Shown here in pieces: positions 3,144 through 19,171 of a DNA stretch of 26,194 nt. This stretch comes from a virus. The stretch lies in the UHGV virus genome UHGV-0110177, one strand, 5' to 3'. Below the pieces are notes generated by a model. It had not been told where the DNA came from. It was given only the letters and a program-made list of their open reading frames with translations, and searched no databases. The first letter of the stretch is position 1, and every line of letters starts with the position of its first letter. Made by a program: the position numbers and the translations under genes.

Positions 3144-4145
3144 TTAGCCCACGTATTCCGGTTTCATGTCGTCCAGGGTGATGCGGAACTGGTCATACAG
3201 TTCGTCGCCTAAGTGCCGTTTCGCTGTGTGAAGAGTGCCTTCAGCTTTAGCAAACAGTTCCGCCGCTTCTGGTTCTCCGGGATTCGACAGGGAGTTGATA
3301 GCGGCCTCAACTTTATTTTTGGCGTCAACAAGGTAGTAGCGCTTCACCGCTTTATTTTTCAGCTCAGTGAACAGCGCAGTTCCCAGCAACGCTTTCTGCG
3401 ACTCAATATCAGCGCGGATAGCTTTGGCCTGGTCAACAGAGCTTGCTGTGTCAATGCGGTCGCGTAGGTCGTCGGCAACGGCATCAACGTTAGTTGCTGA
3501 TTCCTGCGCGGTAGCGAGGATGCCTGTTTCGCTGGTGATCTCTTCAACAGTCATTCGCGGGGTTGGATTTATTTCGCGCTCAACGCGTTCCTCCAACTCA
3601 TCAGGGGTGTAGACCCCCAAAATCGCCCATGGTGTGTAGGCACGAGCCCAGTATTTCACTTGCAAGTAGCCAATTTGCTGCTTTGGGTTACTTTTCCACA
3701 GGGGCGAGTTTTTGATTGTTACTTCCGAAACGCAGAGCCATTCATTCCATGTAATGTCTTTTTCTCCGCTAATAATTGCGCCAACACGGCACTCCATCAG
3801 ATCCTTTTCGCCACGATATTCATAATGGAATCGCCCCCGTATTGCGCCGGTGGCAGTCAGTACCGCGCTAACTAACTGAGCTTCATATCCTAGAGTGCCA
3901 TTTATAACGTGTGTTTTCTGACCGACTACGTAGGGGTCCATACCCCATCGCGCGGCTTGCATGACAATGGCGAGGCAGTCTGATGGCTTACCCTGAAGAT
4001 GTTTGGGCACAGTAGAAATACCCTGGGACATAACATCAGCAATCTTCATCATGCGATCCATGACATCGCCATTCAGCAGTAACGAGCCATTATTCATTGT
4101 GCTGGGTGCCTGCTGATCAATTACCGCTATGTTTCTATTTTCCAT
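3144..4145 (-). CDS. recT: RecT/Bet(Red-beta)-family single-strand annealing protein (333 aa)
   Basis: Recalled similarity to lambda Bet/RecT core (PLWKSNPKQ...VKYWARAY compared with GPWQSHPKR...CARLA); start is 13 nt after recE stop with SD AAGGGGGAA; classic exonuclease-annealase pair. Confidence 0.65.
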   Translation of the reverse strand: MENRNIAVIDQQAPSTMNNGSLLLNGDVMDRMMKIADVMSQGISTVPKHLQGKPSDCLAIVMQAARWGMDPYVVGQKTHVINGTLGYEAQLVSAVLTATGAIRGRFHYEYRGEKDLMECRVGAIISGEKDITWNEWLCVSEVTIKNSPLWKSNPKQQIGYLQVKYWARAYTPWAILGVYTPDELEERVEREINPTPRMTVEEITSETGILATAQESATNVDAVADDLRDRIDTASSVDQAKAIRADIESQKALLGTALFTELKNKAVKRYYLVDAKNKVEAAINSLSNPGEPEAAELFAKAEGTLHTAKRHLGDELYDQFRITLDDMKPEYVG

Positions 4146-4157
4146 GACTGTTCCCCC

Positions 4158-7049
4158 TTATGCCTGTACGCGCAGCGCTTCAAGGCGGCGCACATCAAAA
4201 TCGTTGAGTTCTTCGGCGTAATCTTCGGTAATCGGCGCTGGCCATTCGCCAGTGTCGAATCCGTTCGCGATGGCGCGCATTGCTTTGCGGTATTCCAGCA
4301 TGCCGAGTTCAAGCAGTTCTTCGGATGCCTCGATGATGGCGATCCAGTGGTAGTTCTCGTCTTTGTTGACGAATATCCAGAAAAACTGGTCCAGCGCTGC
4401 GGTTTCGCAGTACATGGCAGCGCTCAGGTGATAATCGCGATCGATGATTTCCCGGTGCAACTTCGCGCGCAGACCTTCCTGCTTGATATTCCACATGCTG
4501 ATAGTCTTCAGGTCAGCGCCGATGCGCAGGCCGCCCATGTCAATTTCAAGGTCAGGGCGCACGCGGATTTCCAGCCCGGTTTCCTCATCAATACCGAAAT
4601 AGCTCACCTCTACGGCGCGGTTCGGATGCGTCAGCAGCTTCCCGGCGGTCGGGTGATTCAGCAGCGCTTTCTGGATGGCCTGCGCGGTGCTCAACTGCTG
4701 GCGGGTAACCAGAATTTTATCGCCGGGGTTTTCGCGCCATGCGTCAAGCAGCTCGTCGGCAAACACTGTTTCAGGTTTGACGGATTTCACTGCCTGAATC
4801 AGATCCGCTTTGGTGCCGGATACTTTCAACGGCTGTGGCTTCTGTGCTTCCTGTGCAACGAGATCAGGATTGATGATCGCCAGTTGCTCAAGCAGCGCGT
4901 CACGGCTTCCGCTGGTTTTAACCGGCGCGGGCAGGGTGGCGTTGTATTCTTTGATGCAGGCCTTCATTGCCGCTGCTGTATGCTTAGTCCCGTTTTCGAT
5001 GCGCTGGAACTCTTCAGGCAATAGCTCATATGACGCATACGCTTCGTCGACGGATGCCCCAAGCGGTAATGGCGCGGGCAGGGTGGCGTTGTACTCTTCC
5101 AGCAACGCTTTGATATCGTCTGCGGTGAGTAATGCCGGCAGGCTGGCGTTGTGTTCGTCGATAACCGCGCGGATCGTCGCTGTCGTCGTGAGCGCGCCTT
5201 CCGAGATTTCCGGTTCGATGCTGAACTCTTTTTCCAGTTGTTCAGGCTGTAACGCCAGCGCGTGCACCAGGTTCCCCATATCCAGAACTTTGGTGCGTTC
5301 TTTCTGGATGGTTTTGGATACGTGGCGCGCTTCGAAATACATCAGACTTACACGTGCATCTTTGACCATTGTCGAACTGATGCCATTCGCCGCGTGATAT
5401 ACCTCGTTCGGTACGCCTTCATAACGCCCCGGCTCGAAGTATTCCGGCCACACTGACGCTGGCTCTGGTTCTTCCTGTTGCATTTCCGGCACGTTTTGTT
5501 GCGTTTCTGGCTCAGAATGGCTTGCAGAATCGTTGTTCTGGCTCACTTCCGGCTGATGGTGGTCTACATCGGCTTGCTCGCCGGTATCTGCCTCTTCACC
5601 ATTCCCCAAATCACTTTCGCTTGCGAGCAGCGCATCACCAGTCTGTTCTTCATTACCGTCAGTTTCTTGAACCTGCACATCGGCGGCGTCCTCATTTTCC
5701 GTTTTTTCTCCCTCATTTGAGGCGGCGTTGTAGTCTTCATGAACCCACTTCGGATCGTTAGGGTCACTGATACCTTCAACGTAATCACCGCGCGCAGCTG
5801 CGAGTTGTCGGTTTACTTCTTCAACGGATGGTTCATCCTGTCTTACTGGCGTTGGCATAGGCATGGACGAACGTCCGCAGGCAATATCAACGACAAGCGG
5901 ATCGGGATTGGCGTGGTCAGTTTCTGTCAGCACCTTATTCAGGTACTCGCGGTGGCGAAACGGGGATTTGTATAGTTCATCTGGTGTGGTTTTTACTGTT
6001 GCAACGATGCATGCGCGGGAATAGTCCAGACCACCAGGCATTGACACGAACAGTTCGCGCGTTGCCAGCCACTCAGGGTCGTCAACTGCGTTCATGATTG
6101 AGTTAGCCTTTAGTTCGATCTGCAATGGCAGAGAATAAATATCAAATTCGTACTGACGCGCCAGCAGGCCTAAGGCTATTTCAAATTCAAGACCGAGAGT
6201 GGTCTGGGGCATCTTGCGATCGGATGCAATTCCGCCGCCAGCGTTCGCGCCGCTTTCAGTACGCTGAATAGCTGATACACGATTACCTTTGCACCACTCT
6301 TTAACGAGCAACCCGCGATCAATATGAGGGGTATCGAACCATGTTTTCAGAAACTGGATAACGCTTGCCAGCTCAGGGATTTTGCCATCAGCAGGAAACA
6401 CGTTCTTAACGGCATTTACCGCTTTATGGATATCGTGTTCAATGGCCTTTTTGAATGGTTCAACATTCTCAGCCGCAAGTAAAATGTTCTGGACATATGA
6501 GTTATCAGTGTCCATTTCCAGAGCGAGAATTGCTTTTTTCTGCTCTGCATCGACATGATAGAGATACTCGCCATCGCCAATATGTTGGGCCAGTATGCGA
6601 TGACGGAAGGGCATCGTTGCCACAACGGTTAACTGAGGGTGTTCAGGTAGATCGCCATTGTCTTCAGTTGACGCCTGATCGTGCTGGATAATTTCGCCAG
6701 TTTCGGTATCAACACCATCAACGATACGCTGACGGGCGACGGCAACGGCCTCAGAAGAGGGCAGCGTAACACCGGGGATCTGTACCCAGGTCATGTTGTC
6801 TTTGCCGAGCTGGTAGAAATCGCAGAACGTTAAGCTGAGTTCGCCTTCCGGCGGCAGTTCGTTAACGACAGGGAAATTAGTGGCGACAGCTTTAAAATAA
6901 TCTTTCAGCTTTGCGCCGGATTTAATCAGGAGATAATCCAGTGTGGCATTTGCCGATTCAAAATCATCACTGCACCAGAGAACCGCATCTTTTTGTCCTG
7001 ATGATTTTTTTGCTTTGCGGACTAAAAATACAGGATTAGTTCCACTCAT
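4158..7049 (-). CDS. recE: Exodeoxyribonuclease VIII (RecE-like), 963 aa
   Basis: N-terminus from ATG at 7049 (MSGTNPVFLVRKAKKSSG...VLWCSDDFES...DYLLIKSG...KAVATNFPVVN) matches E. coli RecE N-terminus from memory; conserved LNKVLTETDHANPDP...DIACGRSS block; SD GAGGAT upstream; the ORF-track start at 7259 is a 70-codon over-extension. Confidence 0.85.
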   Translation of the reverse strand: MSGTNPVFLVRKAKKSSGQKDAVLWCSDDFESANATLDYLLIKSGAKLKDYFKAVATNFPVVNELPPEGELSLTFCDFYQLGKDNMTWVQIPGVTLPSSEAVAVARQRIVDGVDTETGEIIQHDQASTEDNGDLPEHPQLTVVATMPFRHRILAQHIGDGEYLYHVDAEQKKAILALEMDTDNSYVQNILLAAENVEPFKKAIEHDIHKAVNAVKNVFPADGKIPELASVIQFLKTWFDTPHIDRGLLVKEWCKGNRVSAIQRTESGANAGGGIASDRKMPQTTLGLEFEIALGLLARQYEFDIYSLPLQIELKANSIMNAVDDPEWLATRELFVSMPGGLDYSRACIVATVKTTPDELYKSPFRHREYLNKVLTETDHANPDPLVVDIACGRSSMPMPTPVRQDEPSVEEVNRQLAAARGDYVEGISDPNDPKWVHEDYNAASNEGEKTENEDAADVQVQETDGNEEQTGDALLASESDLGNGEEADTGEQADVDHHQPEVSQNNDSASHSEPETQQNVPEMQQEEPEPASVWPEYFEPGRYEGVPNEVYHAANGISSTMVKDARVSLMYFEARHVSKTIQKERTKVLDMGNLVHALALQPEQLEKEFSIEPEISEGALTTTATIRAVIDEHNASLPALLTADDIKALLEEYNATLPAPLPLGASVDEAYASYELLPEEFQRIENGTKHTAAAMKACIKEYNATLPAPVKTSGSRDALLEQLAIINPDLVAQEAQKPQPLKVSGTKADLIQAVKSVKPETVFADELLDAWRENPGDKILVTRQQLSTAQAIQKALLNHPTAGKLLTHPNRAVEVSYFGIDEETGLEIRVRPDLEIDMGGLRIGADLKTISMWNIKQEGLRAKLHREIIDRDYHLSAAMYCETAALDQFFWIFVNKDENYHWIAIIEASEELLELGMLEYRKAMRAIANGFDTGEWPAPITEDYAEELNDFDVRRLEALRVQA

Positions 7050-15639: not shown

Positions 15640-16107
15640 ATGACCACTATTACCAGAGAACAGGCGCAAAAAATTATTGATGCAGCCGACGAGGTGATTA
15701 CCGCGCTGGCCGGAACAAATGAGGATGTACACCCTGAAAGCGACAACATGCTCCGTCTGTGGGATGACCTGAATGACCGTTACGCACCACCAGAAGTTGT
15801 ACGAGAGCTGGCGCGTATCGCGCTGGCATCGCTTACCGCTGAGCCTGTGGCATATGCAGACCCGCAGTCATTCGACAATTTCAAGAGCATGGGCGGGAAA
15901 AACGCTGCGTGCACTAAAGAGTGGATGTGGCGAGATTCCGGTGAGGATCTGATTCCTGTCTACACCGCCCCGCCAGCGCCGGCAGTACCAACATTCGACG
16001 AATGGCTGGAAATTCGCGGTAACAAGCCGCTTGGATGGGTCAAAGATGCCATGCGTGAATCGTATGACGCCTGCCGCGCCGCAATGCTTAACGGAGGTAA
16101 ATCGTGA
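15640..16107 (+). CDS. Hypothetical protein (155 aa)
   Basis: ORF in operon. Confidence 0.55.
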   Translation: MTTITREQAQKIIDAADEVITALAGTNEDVHPESDNMLRLWDDLNDRYAPPEVVRELARIALASLTAEPVAYADPQSFDNFKSMGGKNAACTKEWMWRDSGEDLIPVYTAPPAPAVPTFDEWLEIRGNKPLGWVKDAMRESYDACRAAMLNGGKS

Positions 16108-16619
16108 AAACTATCCAGTTATCAGAGCGTGAACTTTCCATGATTTTCAGCATGCTGACGCCGCCGTACTGCGCTGAAGATATTCGCTCTGACGAGTTCA
16201 ACGAATTGCGTAATAAAGTCTTTTACGCTCTGCGTGATGCAAGGAACGATGAACTTGTAAGTAATCGTGATGAGTTGCCTGAAGAAAAAGGCGCATCTCT
16301 CCAACTGCGTAATTTAATCCGGCGGCGCCATGCTGAATGGTCTGATGCCACGTTCGGAAATGTTGGTCCTGTTGGTCCACTTAAGCACCTGTCGAAAGAG
16401 GCGCTGGAAGCCGCAGCAGAACCTGACGACCTCAGCGAGTGGGCTGATATGCAGTTCCTGTTATGGGACGCCCAGCGGCGCGCTGGTATCTGCGATGGTG
16501 AAATCACAGCAGCAATGGAAGAAAAGCTGAAAGTGAATATGGCGCGCCAGTGGCCAGAACCGAAAGACGGAGAACCACGGCTGCACATCAAAGCGGATCA
16601 ACAGCAGGAGCACAAGTGA
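16104..16619 (+). CDS. Protein with DUF550-like (dATP/dGTP pyrophosphohydrolase-like) C-terminal region, 171 aa
   Basis: Motif HAEWSDATFGN...LKHLSKEALE...EWADMQFLLWD recalled as DUF550-like; GTGA-coupled start with SD GGAGGT. Confidence 0.55.
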   Translation: MKTIQLSERELSMIFSMLTPPYCAEDIRSDEFNELRNKVFYALRDARNDELVSNRDELPEEKGASLQLRNLIRRRHAEWSDATFGNVGPVGPLKHLSKEALEAAAEPDDLSEWADMQFLLWDAQRRAGICDGEITAAMEEKLKVNMARQWPEPKDGEPRLHIKADQQQEHK

Positions 16620-16691: not shown

Positions 16692-16919
16692 GTGATTACT
16701 TATCTTTTTTTCGGTTTCCTTATTGTTTGCACTCTGTTTTGCATGGTGATGTTATGGCGGGTTGCCAAGGTGGCAGAGTGGCGACTCAAGGCCCTCGAGA
16801 TGAGTGCTGATGATTATCAGGCGCTACCTGAATTTCATAAGATGCTGTGGATGATTTGGATATGGAGGCTAGAACGCTTCCCGAGATGTAATAAGCGGGC
16901 ATGGTCGGAGGTGAAGTGA
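16692..16919 (+). CDS. Possible small membrane protein (75 aa from GTG)
   Basis: Hydrophobic N-terminus; start uncertain (TTG/GTG); competing 24-codon ORF in another frame at 16616..16690. Confidence 0.3.
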   Translation: MITYLFFGFLIVCTLFCMVMLWRVAKVAEWRLKALEMSADDYQALPEFHKMLWMIWIWRLERFPRCNKRAWSEVK

Positions 16920-17080
16920 TGGATCAACTTTCGCAATACACCACTAACAGGATTATTGAACTGGAAAATCTGCTGCTGGTGGATGTTGAGGAAACGGTCT
17001 GGCCAGCGGAAGTGAAAATGGTTTTTTCTCAGGTTGAGAACGCCGGGGATCTCCCGGCGCACCATAGTTTTCATGGCTGA
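16919..17080 (+). CDS. Possible small protein (53 aa)
   Basis: Not in track; SD GGAGGTGAAG; 1-nt overlap with upstream stop; 3' end overlaps convergent lipoprotein gene by 10 nt. Confidence 0.3.
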   Translation: MDQLSQYTTNRIIELENLLLVDVEETVWPAEVKMVFSQVENAGDLPAHHSFHG

Positions 17081-17475
17081 CCTTCGAAGTTCCATCTTGC
17101 GGAACCCATATTAAAGTAAACTCTCCGATCGGTAAACGCCGGGAATGTCGCTCTTTCAGAAGCTTTTTGCAATGCAGCGCAATAATCTTTGTCACCACCT
17201 TTCACGATAAAATTTTGCAGGGTGCCATCGACTTTGAAATCCAGATGAGCGTTACATTTTTTACCATTCCAGGCATGGGGCTCTGTAAGTGCTGCGTCCA
17301 AAGCTTTTTTTATTCTGGATGAATACCATCCATATATATCCTTATCCGACACTTTACCCGAACTCTTATATTCGCATGATTCCATTGCATTTTCTTTCTG
17401 ACAGCCTGTAGGTGCAAGAGGGGAGCAACCTGCAATGGTTAATGTCACCACAATCAACATTAAAAATTTTATCAT
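17071..17475 (-). CDS. Lipoprotein (signal peptide with lipobox IAGC), 134 aa, reverse-oriented accessory gene
   Basis: N-terminus MIKFLMLIVVTLTIAGCS; opposite strand to surrounding operon; AT-rich upstream region. Confidence 0.65.
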   Translation of the reverse strand: MIKFLMLIVVTLTIAGCSPLAPTGCQKENAMESCEYKSSGKVSDKDIYGWYSSRIKKALDAALTEPHAWNGKKCNAHLDFKVDGTLQNFIVKGGDKDYCAALQKASERATFPAFTDRRVYFNMGSARWNFEGQP

Positions 17476-17550
17476 ATATGTTCCCATCATGCTGAAATTC
17501 AATTTATTGAATTGTATAGTTATTTTCAGAGATTTAAAATATGATAGTTA

Positions 17551-17589
17551 CATTACTTCTTCAGTAATGAAGTGACAGACTTCATTACT
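17551..17589. repeat. Three-arm inverted repeat: CATTACT (17551-57) / AGTAATGAAGT (17563-73) / ACTTCATTACT (17579-89)
   Basis: Perfect 11-bp stem with 5-nt loop and an alternative 7-bp pairing; read directly. Confidence 0.6.
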
Positions 17590-17758
17590 AATGTTTCAAC
17601 TGCACGAAATCTACCATGCAGGGTTTCCTGCTGCGGTAATGCTGTGCCGCCGTCGTTCGCCGCGGCGCTCGTCCGGGTGGATCTGCCCGAACTTTGCCAG
17701 CCGAAAGAAATGGCTGCGTAATGTATAATCCCTCTCAAAGCATCGAGGGGGATTCATC

Positions 17759-18007
17759 ATGTCAGACTGGAACATCGCAGCAAAACCGAAAGACGATCAG
17801 GACAAAATCAACGTGGATTTAGCGGCCAGCGGCGTTGCGTACAAAGAGCGCCTGAACATGCCGGTTATCGCTGAAGTGGTGATGCGCGAGCAGCCAGAGC
17901 ATCTGCGGGACTATTTCCTTGAGCAGTTACGATATTACCGGGAGCAGAGTATTTCTCTGCCAAAAGCATTTGACCCTCGATATCTCAAACAGGAGGAAGG
18001 TAAGTGA
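17759..18007 (+). CDS. Hypothetical protein (82 aa), upstream partner of AT-rich gene
   Basis: SD GAGGGGGA; candidate -10 TATAAT at 17724-17729. Confidence 0.6.
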   Translation: MSDWNIAAKPKDDQDKINVDLAASGVAYKERLNMPVIAEVVMREQPEHLRDYFLEQLRYYREQSISLPKAFDPRYLKQEEGK

Positions 18008-18639
18008 AATTTTCTCGAATCGAACAAAGCCCAATAATGGACAAGGGAAACTACGTTAAAATTGATCATGATTTTGGCTATTTTTTAGATCCGAATAAGA
18101 TGGCTTCGATAGCTAACTATGAAGATGAGTCAGCAGCACTATTAAAATTAATGCTAATTCATGAGGACTTTCTTCGAGTTGTTATTGAGAACTTAAGGCC
18201 TGAGGGTTCAGAGAAGTACAATGCCATCAAAAGCTATAAGTATTTTGCACCGAAGTTGTCAGCTGCCGTTCTCTTAGGGCTTCCTGTATCACTTGCTGAT
18301 GCTATGTCTGAACTCAACAGCATTCGAAACAAGTACGCTCATAAAATTGACTATGTCATTACAAATGAAGAAGTTGACAAGCTTGCGGAAACGATTAAAA
18401 AAATAAAAATCGAAGAAATTAACCACGGTGGCTACATACATCAAGTTATTGAGCCAATCCTTAAGGATGGGATCTACGCAGTGGCTCTGATGAACGATCT
18501 ACCTCCTGATTTGGAAGAAAATCGTCTTCGTATATGCAAATTAGTCACTAGCGCACACTGCATGTGCTTACTGGGGGCTTTTTGGTTAATTAATACTCTC
18601 CACGTTAAGGACAAACTAAAACTTTCCATGTCTGAGTAG
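18004..18639 (+). CDS. AT-rich hypothetical protein with R-x4-H motif (RNKYAH); possible HEPN-like protein (211 aa from GTG; 200 aa from ATG 18037)
   Basis: Low GC compared with neighbours; GTGA overlap with upstream gene; motif read directly, family assignment not verified. Confidence 0.55.
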   Translation: MKFSRIEQSPIMDKGNYVKIDHDFGYFLDPNKMASIANYEDESAALLKLMLIHEDFLRVVIENLRPEGSEKYNAIKSYKYFAPKLSAAVLLGLPVSLADAMSELNSIRNKYAHKIDYVITNEEVDKLAETIKKIKIEEINHGGYIHQVIEPILKDGIYAVALMNDLPPDLEENRLRICKLVTSAHCMCLLGAFWLINTLHVKDKLKLSMSE

Positions 18640-18804
18640 GGCAGGAGGAACGTTTCCACACAATTTATTTTCTGGAATCAACCCGCCATAATCATGTCAT
18701 CGGAGCCTGAACAACTCCGGTGACTTCTGCGCATTTAAGTCCCCTTAAATGCGACCACCATCTCAACTCCTCACCTGCCACAGATGCAAATGCTCTTAAT
18801 GATT

Positions 18805-18828
18805 AAACCCGCTTCGGCGGGTTTTTTT
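18805..18828 (+). terminator. Rho-independent terminator (CCCGC-ttcg-GCGGG then T7)
   Basis: Read directly. Confidence 0.75.
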
Positions 18829-18899
18829 ACGCCTGAAATTTGTGTCTATGGGTTAACAATTCGTGCTCTTAAAACGTTGATCATTTCGCTTTATAGGTA

Positions 18900-18919
18900 T
18901 ACTGTATAAAAACACAGTA
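18900..18919 (+). promoter_or_regulatory. LexA box (TACTGTATAAAAACACAGTA) upstream of dinI
   Basis: Matches CTGT-N8-ACAG SOS box consensus; 19 nt upstream of dinI ATG. Confidence 0.8.
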
Positions 18920-18937
18920 TACGCAGTGGAGGCCACT

Positions 18938-19171
18938 ATGAAAGTTGAGTTAACTATTGATCGAACAAAGAAACTTCCTGATGGTGCAGTGCCAGCATTA
19001 GAAGCCGAACTGTTACGTAGGCTCAGCCAGAACTATGAAGGGGTAAAACTTACAATTCGCCGCGCAGGGGCTGATGGCCTGAGTATTCTGGGGGGTGAAA
19101 AAGGGGACAAGCAGCGCATTGAGGAGATTCTTCAGGAGACCTGGGTAAGCGCCGACGACTGGTTTTACTAA
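18938..19171 (+). CDS. dinI: DinI-like DNA-damage-inducible protein (77 aa)
   Basis: Recalled similarity to E. coli DinI (KQRIEEILQETWVSADDWFY C-terminus); LexA box upstream; SD GGAGG. Confidence 0.85.
   Translation: MKVELTIDRTKKLPDGAVPALEAELLRRLSQNYEGVKLTIRRAGADGLSILGGEKGDKQRIEEILQETWVSADDWFY

Follow-up and report, generated by a model that had tools for sequence, protein, structure and literature searches.

The window analysed here, a stretch of 26,194 nt from the UHGV virus genome UHGV-0110177, encodes on its minus strand (17071..17475, stop codon included) a lipoprotein of 134 amino acids (aa) that, judged from its sequence and a structural model, is a lipoprotein signal joined to a diverged C-terminal domain III of TolA (TolAIII), and not TolA itself. 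The gene lies in a 526-bp cassette, a presumed element of lysogenic conversion, that took the place of a methylase gene within the nin region of a lambdoid prophage of Citrobacter koseri. As the best explanation of the whole we propose, tentatively and with somewhat less than even confidence, that the protein is an unenergised TolAIII decoy at the outer membrane which would intercept TolA ligands. A sequence-only reading of this DNA had drawn attention to the gene and to a three-arm inverted repeat in its upstream region. The main interest lies in the domain and not in this palindrome, namely in a common, conserved and uncharacterised class of TolAIII lipoproteins, one of which here replaces a methylase gene.

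To enter enterobacteria, group A colicins and filamentous phages must take hold of TolA domain III, which serves them as a handle in the periplasm. This domain is a hub whose sheet binds the N-terminus of TolB, N1 of the filamentous-phage protein g3p and colicin N at one edge and colicin A at the opposite edge, in every case by β-strand addition or augmentation (PMC7391070; PMC3365938).

The open reading frame (ORF) of the lipoprotein extends over 17071..17502 on the minus strand. All 23 homologues begin with M-x-K, and therefore the ATG at 17475 was taken as the true start; the coding sequence from there is supported by the ORF, Pfam and the alignment. Residues 1–17 (MIKFLMLIVVTLTIAGC; 17425..17475, minus strand), followed by SPLAP, form a predicted signal peptide with a lysine at position 3, hydrophobic residues 4–14 and the lipobox TIAGC, in which the cysteine to be lipidated is predicted at codon 17. 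The lipobox IAGC named in the sequence-only reading was confirmed by a PROSITE-type lipoprotein pattern, which matches the window protein and fits 23 of 24 family members. Among 24 sequences, Cys17 is invariant and Gly16 nearly so. The residue at position +2 is a serine in the window protein and S, A, T or V across the family, never Asp, from which, by the +2 rule, we infer lipidation and sorting to the outer membrane.

The mature part of the protein holds the TolAIII domain at residues 47–134 (17074..17337, minus strand), on which Pfam, a profile comparison with the PDB, an AlphaFold2 model and Foldseek agree. The Pfam family PF06519 matches residues 48–126 over profile positions 13–92 of 96 (E 6.5e-11, 42.7 bits against a cut-off of 25) and is the sole Pfam match of the lipoprotein at E ≤ 1, while the only PHROG match is phrog_5772, a family of unknown function. 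A profile built from the family matched only TolAIII chains in the PDB (E ~3e-9). The AlphaFold2 model reached a mean predicted local distance difference test score of 81.5, with 93–98 over most of residues 51–130 and 81 in the block 61–70. The fold search proposed in the sequence-only reading led directly to TolAIII: with Foldseek, the model superimposed on the E. coli domain 3QDP with a target template-modelling score of 0.88 and a root mean square deviation of 1.2 Å over 83 columns. The next matches were 3QDR, 2X9A, 1S62, 1TOL and 4G7X; complexes of TolAIII with colicin A, g3p of the phages IF1 and M13, pIII of CTXphi and a TolB peptide stand at this level of the list. The likeness to E. 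coli domain III (PDB 3QDP, 1TOL, 1S62) comprises the fold, consisting of a helix, two strands, two helices and a C-terminal edge strand, homologous sequence and a conserved cysteine pair. The latter, Cys74 and Cys99, is invariant in the 24 sequences and aligns with Cys363 and Cys388 of E. coli TolA, with a disulfide between them being a prediction. An additional conserved cysteine pair, Cys25 and Cys34, is located in the linker.

The sequence-only reading had considered that phage-encoded outer-membrane lipoproteins often mediate receptor-level superinfection exclusion or serum resistance. It was right in kind, as the gene is of the moron type and foreign to the phage backbone, but the two specific functions found no match, as the sequence resembles none of Cor, Llp and Bor. 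Cor of phi80, HK022 and N15, Llp of T5, Bor of lambda and the plasmid protein TraT are likewise small outer-membrane lipoproteins of mobile elements, expressed to alter the cell envelope to the benefit of the resident element. A receptor-masking role modelled on Cor and Llp, in which the domain locks an outer-membrane receptor via its periplasmic face or a TonB-box-like strand and so blocks adsorption or DNA entry of tailed phages, would suit an outer-membrane-type lipoprotein in a lambdoid prophage. Llp itself acts on the outer membrane from within the periplasm and is described in one report as binding FhuA from that side (10.64898/2026.03.26.714494), which counts in favour of such a role. 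Moreover, the fold of TolAIII is akin to that of the C-terminal domain of TonB, and TonB domains of this kind, including those from TonB-FhuA and TonB-BtuB complexes, appeared at ranks 10–21 of the Foldseek matches. These matches were, however, three to five orders of magnitude weaker than those to TolAIII, no receptor candidate is known, and a relation to Cor, Llp, Bor or TraT is lacking in fold as well as in sequence. We consider receptor masking improbable. Since PF06519 is the only family matched and the fold is that of TolAIII, the likely target is the periplasmic Tol import pathway and not a surface receptor such as FhuA, nor complement.

In spite of this fold, several features separate the window protein from TolA proper. 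The TolA models of NCBIfam matched only with their last ~100–120 profile positions and stayed far below their cut-offs (NF007065, 41.8 bits against 213; TIGR02794, 34.4 against 59.45). With 134 aa, a lipoprotein signal and nin genes as neighbours, the protein has neither the inner-membrane anchor nor the long helical domain II of TolA, and its gene is not part of a tolQRA-tolB-pal operon. Engineered fusions of a signal sequence to TolAIII, such as those of Levengood-Freyermuth 1993 and Wan & Baneyx 1998, likewise bring the domain into the periplasm without a membrane anchor and perturb Tol function; those constructs, however, are soluble, overproduced E. coli TolAIII, whereas the window protein is natural, much diverged, predicted to be lipid-anchored and preceded by its own predicted promoter. 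The names found in the sources, 'tolA family protein', 'cell envelope integrity TolA C-terminal domain-containing protein' and 'colicin import membrane protein', are all automatic, so that a common family carries no other labels than these and is sometimes misleadingly called 'tolA'. A full-text literature search found no study of prophage or plasmid TolAIII lipoproteins.

The gene is located in an inserted cassette, or moron, of 526 bp (17065..17590) that takes the place of the body of a C5 cytosine methylase gene. At the left boundary (17064/17065), DNA homology to methylase-carrying relatives ends at 17064, six bases past the stop codon of the lipoprotein gene, in six of six IMG/VR comparisons. 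At the right boundary (17590/17591), alignment to relatives places the beginning of the methylase 3′ remnant at 17591. Between the two, the insert consists of the six bases, the ORF, the 5′ leader with the promoter region and the three-arm repeat. Among 22 IMG/VR contigs sharing the left flank, 19 hold an intact methylase of ~715 aa in this slot, while in the two that carry the lipoprotein only the last 32–34 methylase codons remain. The boundaries are thus sharp and the cassette is missing from collinear relatives, with a replacement rather than a pure insertion as the type of event. Its composition also differs from that of the flanks: the GC content ranges from 0.31 to 0.39 in the cassette and amounts to 0.315 in 17400–17599, compared to ~0.5 in the flanking DNA, in agreement with the AT-rich upstream region noted from the sequence. 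In another IMG/VR contig, L046, the methylase slot is filled by a different replacement of ~2.4 kb that left the last 41 methylase codons; from this, the slot looks like a recurrent point of exchange.

Traces of the replaced genes are found on both sides. The methylase remnant (17591..17721, plus strand) begins with MFQLHEIYHAGFP and ends with CGNAVPPSFAAALVRVDLPELCQPKEMAA and a stop codon. Its positions 17591–17628 align with a methylase segment encoding MLQPHELYRAQGFP and 17627–17721 with the final 92 nt of the gene, which encode CGNAVPPPFAEALVRANLPELC ahead of the stop codon; ~63 nt are missing between these segments, a deletion common to all cassette carriers. To the left of the cassette, a small ORF of phrog_16025 (16901..17080, plus strand) is truncated and retains 49 codons from the beginning of a phage ORF of 85 aa. 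It is conserved as far as 17064, and its last codons and stop are supplied by the insert. By alignment, 16901–17080 and 17591–17721 are taken to be the remnants of a two-gene methylase module made up of the 85-aa ORF and the ~715-aa methylase.

As the sequence-only reading had stated, the lipoprotein gene is encoded against the direction of the surrounding operon, running antisense to the plus-strand nin operon with O, P, a PF04447 gene, theta, DinI, NinB, RusA and Q. Its transcription would most likely be independent of this operon and start from a sigma-70-like promoter of its own at 17511..17538 on the minus strand, with the −35 element TTTAAA (17538–17533), a 16-nt spacer and the −10 element TACAAT (17516–17511). 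This site has 9 of 12 matches to the consensus and is a prediction, since shuffled sequence yields such sites in equal number. The consensus scan places the transcription start near 17504, which gives a leader of 29 nt. Overlapping the −10 element and the predicted start site, there is a palindrome, AATTCAAT-AA-ATTGAATT (17496..17513), in which the sole substitution in L001, L025 and L060, T to G, extends the arms to 9+9. Just past the stop codon, the backbone DNA contains a GC-rich hairpin (CGCCGGG-GATCT-CCCGGCG, 17041..17059) that is a possible weak terminator of the minus-strand transcript. For a moron with its own promoter and terminator, the window thus offers a promoter-like site at shuffle frequency and a hairpin lacking a T-run. 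In the opposite direction, a sigma-70-like plus-strand site, a match to the consensus, is found inside the insert (17492–17520, CTGAAA-17-TATAGT); if active, it would drive transcripts through the upstream palindrome toward theta.

The gene was found at six Citrobacter lambdoid prophage loci, and the identical lipoprotein sequence is recorded in Citrobacter koseri as 'tolA family protein'. The metagenome contig L060 (OCJN01000001.1) retains cassette and palindrome in an apparently decayed prophage, which has lost the genes for immunity and replication and in which a nin fragment is fused to a partial RecT and an integrase gene. More distant homologues, with 59–73% identity, occur singly on the chromosomes of Serratia, Pantoea, Erwinia, Enterobacter, Yersinia, Pluralibacter and Citrobacter, in variable contexts outside prophages. 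There is no recurrent partner gene, as 100 neighbours of 29 distinct chromosomal loci fell into 93 Pfam families; a few of these neighbours are defence or restriction genes (Mrr, GmrSD, GIY-YIG, NucC, HEC-05). Pairwise ratios of non-synonymous to synonymous substitution rates (dN/dS) of 0.12 for the whole gene and 0.09 for the TolAIII domain indicate that the family is under strong purifying selection, as expected for a real, constrained gene. An exhaustive HMMER scan of 1.84 billion cluster representatives yielded 59 clusters, nearly all of 100–160 aa, and those inspected showed a lipobox followed by a TolAIII domain.

Further TolAIII lipoproteins are carried by mobile elements. The E. coli phage mEp460_ev081 encodes two of them in tandem between Q and the lysis genes (L028:3416-3844 and 3995-4390). 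The first, named 'tolA' by the RefSeq pipeline, shares 59% identity with E. coli TolAIII, and the second is 40% identical to the window protein; sequence identity marks the first as a much more recent capture. Of 5426 complete E. coli genomes, 776 (~14%) hold this pair at ≥ 99% identity. A homologue of the second gene, at 87% DNA identity, is carried by F-type plasmids (~600 plasmids, with pO157 of EDL933 among them, L105:3495-3926) and adjoins psiB-psiA-hok in pO157. Cells with F-type plasmids become targets of Ff phages, and these phages depend on TolAIII. The contigs L026 and L027, lambdoid phages of Citrobacter type in IMG/VR, carry in addition to the TolAIII lipoprotein gene a second, very divergent TolA-domain lipoprotein (L026:5500-5895, minus strand) of 131 aa, with a PF06519 score of 27 bits and ~21% identity to the window protein. 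Its gene and the TolAIII lipoprotein gene point away from each other, and it occupies the place of the palindrome-bearing upstream region. Taken together, these proteins (PHROG 5772 and relatives), comprising the mEp460 pair, the pO157 protein and the second one of L026/L027, share the lipobox and TolAIII domain, a length of 123–143 aa and locations at prophage moron positions or in a plasmid region beside psiA, psiB and hok. They differ from the window protein in their identity to it, which is 17–40%, and in position and orientation, e.g. after Q on the same strand.

The proposed decoy would work as follows. Tethered to the outer membrane, the lipoprotein would display its TolAIII domain in the periplasm of the lysogen, in which it is presumed to be expressed. 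A copy without the inner-membrane anchor of TolA and its coupling to TolQR could not transmit force and would hence be unenergised. By β-strand addition, it could bind the ligands of TolAIII, i.e. the TolB N-terminus and those segments by which group A colicins or filamentous-phage g3p attach to TolA, so that Tol-dependent invaders would be intercepted at the outer membrane and the lysogen would become tolerant. A study by Levengood-Freyermuth in 1993 reportedly showed colicin tolerance in cells that export TolAIII to the periplasm. Colicin A was originally discovered in Citrobacter, so that the setting is ecologically plausible. If mobile elements routinely carried such a lipid-anchored, unenergised copy, this would provide a simple and general resistance to bacteriocins and phages by mimicry of a host hub protein, different from receptor masking and from immunity proteins.

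A number of observations weigh against this proposal. The identity to E. coli TolAIII is only 26%, and the lysines of TolA that contact colicin A (PMC3365938) are replaced: K368 corresponds to D79 and K379 to I90, both (nearly) invariant in the family, and K396 to E107 in the window protein. Because of these replacements, the domain is not a close mimic of the colicin A site. Very strong purifying selection across genera, as estimated from the sequences, would be easier to reconcile with a conserved partner in the host than with toxins or phages, which evolve fast, and the high conservation of the β3 edge (SARW...EGQP) and of the HLDF strand likewise suggests a conserved partner, for instance TolB. 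The chromosomal copies in Serratia, Pantoea and Erwinia outside prophages suggest a physiological role. PADLOC assigned the window protein and three other TolAIII lipoproteins to none of its families, and the terminator scan called no canonical terminator after the lipoprotein gene. By analogy with tol-like leakiness, an unregulated TolAIII decoy could also be costly. According to Wan & Baneyx 1998, as used in PMC6195910, export of TolAIII to the periplasm without an anchor renders E. coli leaky and disturbs its outer membrane.

Several of these points are equally those on which a modulator of envelope physiology could be based. Such a protein would bind the TolB N-terminus or another periplasmic partner and tune Tol-Pal, with consequences for outer-membrane stability, vesiculation or the mobilisation of Pal, to the benefit of the host or of phage release. 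The dN/dS of 0.09, the conservation across genera of the β3 edge strand SARW with its invariant R127 and W128 and of H77-L78-D79-F80, the stand-alone chromosomal copies in many Enterobacterales and the change in outer-membrane permeability caused by periplasmic TolAIII all speak for it. However, the gene is accessory and patchy and occurs in variable contexts, sometimes beside Mrr, GmrSD, NucC or HEC-05, and it is recurrent cargo of prophages and plasmids, as is typical of conflict genes. We regard an envelope modulator as unlikely, if a little less so than receptor masking. The decoy reading could also be extended to the family as a whole, with TolAIII lipoproteins, the E. coli relatives included, as a widespread class of single-gene protection on prophages, F-type plasmids and chromosomal islets that traps the Tol-binding segments of group A bacteriocins and filamentous phages or the TolB N-terminus. 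Protection would then be uncoupled from the proton-motive force, and tolerance would be broad and independent of specific immunity proteins. This wider generalisation we hold to be possible but doubtful, more so than the decoy role in the window.

The perfect inverted repeat of 11 nt reported in the sequence-only reading is real. Its arms, AGTAATGAAGT and ACTTCATTACT, lie at 17563–17573 and 17579–17589 around a 5-nt loop, among the last bases of the insert, and a repeat search found the 7-nt 'third arm' CATTACT at 17551..17557. The whole arrangement is located 76–114 nt upstream of the ATG, in line with the ~75–115 bp given before, and the centre of the 11-nt palindrome is ~72 nt upstream of the predicted transcription start site. 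No other perfect hairpin-type repeat in the window reaches this length. In block-shuffled 26-kb windows, a repeat of 11 nt or longer occurred somewhere in 16 of 200 (8%), whereas shuffling of the 300-nt upstream region produced one in only 2 of 5000 cases. The third arm is at chance level, as 7.6% of shuffled flanks hold such a 7-mer. In the fold of the minus-strand RNA, the main hairpin dominates with 13 pairs (~−16 kcal/mol, z ~−2.7) and the third arm is unpaired at minimum energy. Hence, the copy with which the left arm was supposed to pair instead does exist, but a switch between mutually exclusive hairpins was rejected. Several other candidates were rejected as well. An intrinsic terminator on either strand was discarded because 3 of 11 pairs are G-C, there is no T-run and the terminator scan was silent. 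Comparison by eye revealed no convincing likeness to Fur, CRP or LexA boxes. A minus-strand ORF of 61 aa over the palindrome (17553–17738) was dismissed since the frame conserved in relatives is that of the plus-strand methylase remnant. An Rfam scan of 16800–19000 at E ≤ 1 gave no match overlapping the palindrome.

Conservation of the palindrome was considered next to its position. Among the cassette carriers, C. koseri L001/L002, the IMG/VR contigs L024 and L025 and the metagenome L060 have it, with ~17510–17600 being 100% identical to the window. Since nothing varies within the element among these carriers, its conservation is uninformative with respect to function. The expectation that it would be kept in related prophages therefore holds for carriers of the same cassette but not for the sister cassette of L026/L027: there, the same ORF (95% aa identity) and the same left flank are found, similarity ends at 17481 and the palindrome is absent. 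Read by eye, the upstream region of L026 has a promoter of its own (TTCAAA-16-TATACT). The palindrome was also absent from all of the 50+ distant homologues examined (59–73% identity), one subgroup of which has a GC-rich hairpin at ~−70 that was read as the terminator of the upstream gene. A scan of IMG/VR for the exact pattern returned only L024 and L025, both contigs with the same cassette, and a half-site search in the window gave no copies beyond chance. A symmetric operator, as suggested from the sequence, is unsupported by these data, and a regulon site was rejected, as the palindrome neither recurs at other promoters nor is conserved in diverged relatives.

Two interpretations of the palindrome, as the distal end of the cassette, were weighed. 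One of them assigns no present function to it and takes it as a relic of the donor locus or as a hairpin favouring illegitimate recombination, with the three-arm appearance as a coincidence. The right arm ends at 17589, one base short of the junction with the methylase remnant, and the opposite junction (17064/17065) also adjoins a hairpin-capable palindrome, the GC-rich 17041–17059. The palindrome is moreover dispensable in L026/L027, the third arm is at chance level and the 8% of shuffled windows with an 11-nt repeat fit this interpretation. Its local improbability (2/5000) does not, nor does its unchanged state at six loci (window, L001/L002, L024, L025 and L060) in spite of a divergence of up to ~25% in the methylase remnant of the same carriers. 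We give this interpretation about even chances. According to the other one, the palindrome is a cis-regulatory site for an activator or repressor, maybe with looping to the palindrome at 17496–17513. Here, the perfect 11+11 symmetry and its rarity in the shuffled 300-nt region count in favour, as does the upstream location with a spacing that would be typical of class I activator sites. A second palindrome over the −10 element and start, lengthened by the only substitution there (L001, L025, L060), points in the same direction. On the other hand, half-sites are at chance level, the pattern is confined in IMG/VR to two contigs with the same cassette, and the complete identity among carriers is no evidence of selection. 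In addition, L026/L027 retain the gene with an unrelated upstream region, distant homologues do without the palindrome, there is no linked regulator gene and the Fur, CRP and LexA consensus sequences are unlike it. A regulatory role at ~−72 appears rather unlikely to us. In summary of these points, the palindrome is real and locally improbable and marks the end of the insert, nothing shown requires it for the gene, and the evidence points rather to a relic, or to a local site of regulation at the most.

As a whole, the window represents the early arm of a lambdoid prophage. It contains genes for an integrase, RecT and a RecE-like exonuclease, then a repressor-like gene and O-like and P-like replication genes, followed by the nin-type region with the PF04447 gene, DNA polymerase III theta, a DinI homologue, NinB and RusA, and then the Q antiterminator. 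The PF04447 gene encodes a dATP/dGTP pyrophosphohydrolase domain (16104–16619, plus strand). A DNA-level search for close phage or E. coli matches yielded none except for the theta gene (~80%).

Downstream of the methylase remnant, an intrinsic terminator, AAACCCGCTTCGGCGGGTTTTTTT, was detected at 18806–18828 (plus strand). In methylase-carrying relatives, near-identical hairpins (CCCGCTACGGCGGG; CCCGCTTCGGCGGG in L036 and L001) directly follow the methylase stop codon, and for this reason theta and an ORF of 211 aa look like further insertions between the remnant and the terminator. The 211-aa ORF (18004–18639, plus strand) is AT-rich with a GC content of 0.35–0.41, adjoins the theta gene and matches PHROG 5712, a family of unknown function. 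It has no Pfam match and weak PADLOC matches (Csm6, PbeC) over residues 91–140, which contain RNKYAH, an Rx4H HEPN-like motif. This ORF is a candidate for an abortive-infection or defence moron of the HEPN kind. A perfect 10-nt inverted repeat is located at ~18730. Finally, a perfect LexA-box consensus, TACTGTATAAAAACACAGTA, occurs at 18900–18919, immediately upstream of the DinI-like gene (18926–19171, plus strand), and therefore the phage DinI homologue looks SOS-regulated.

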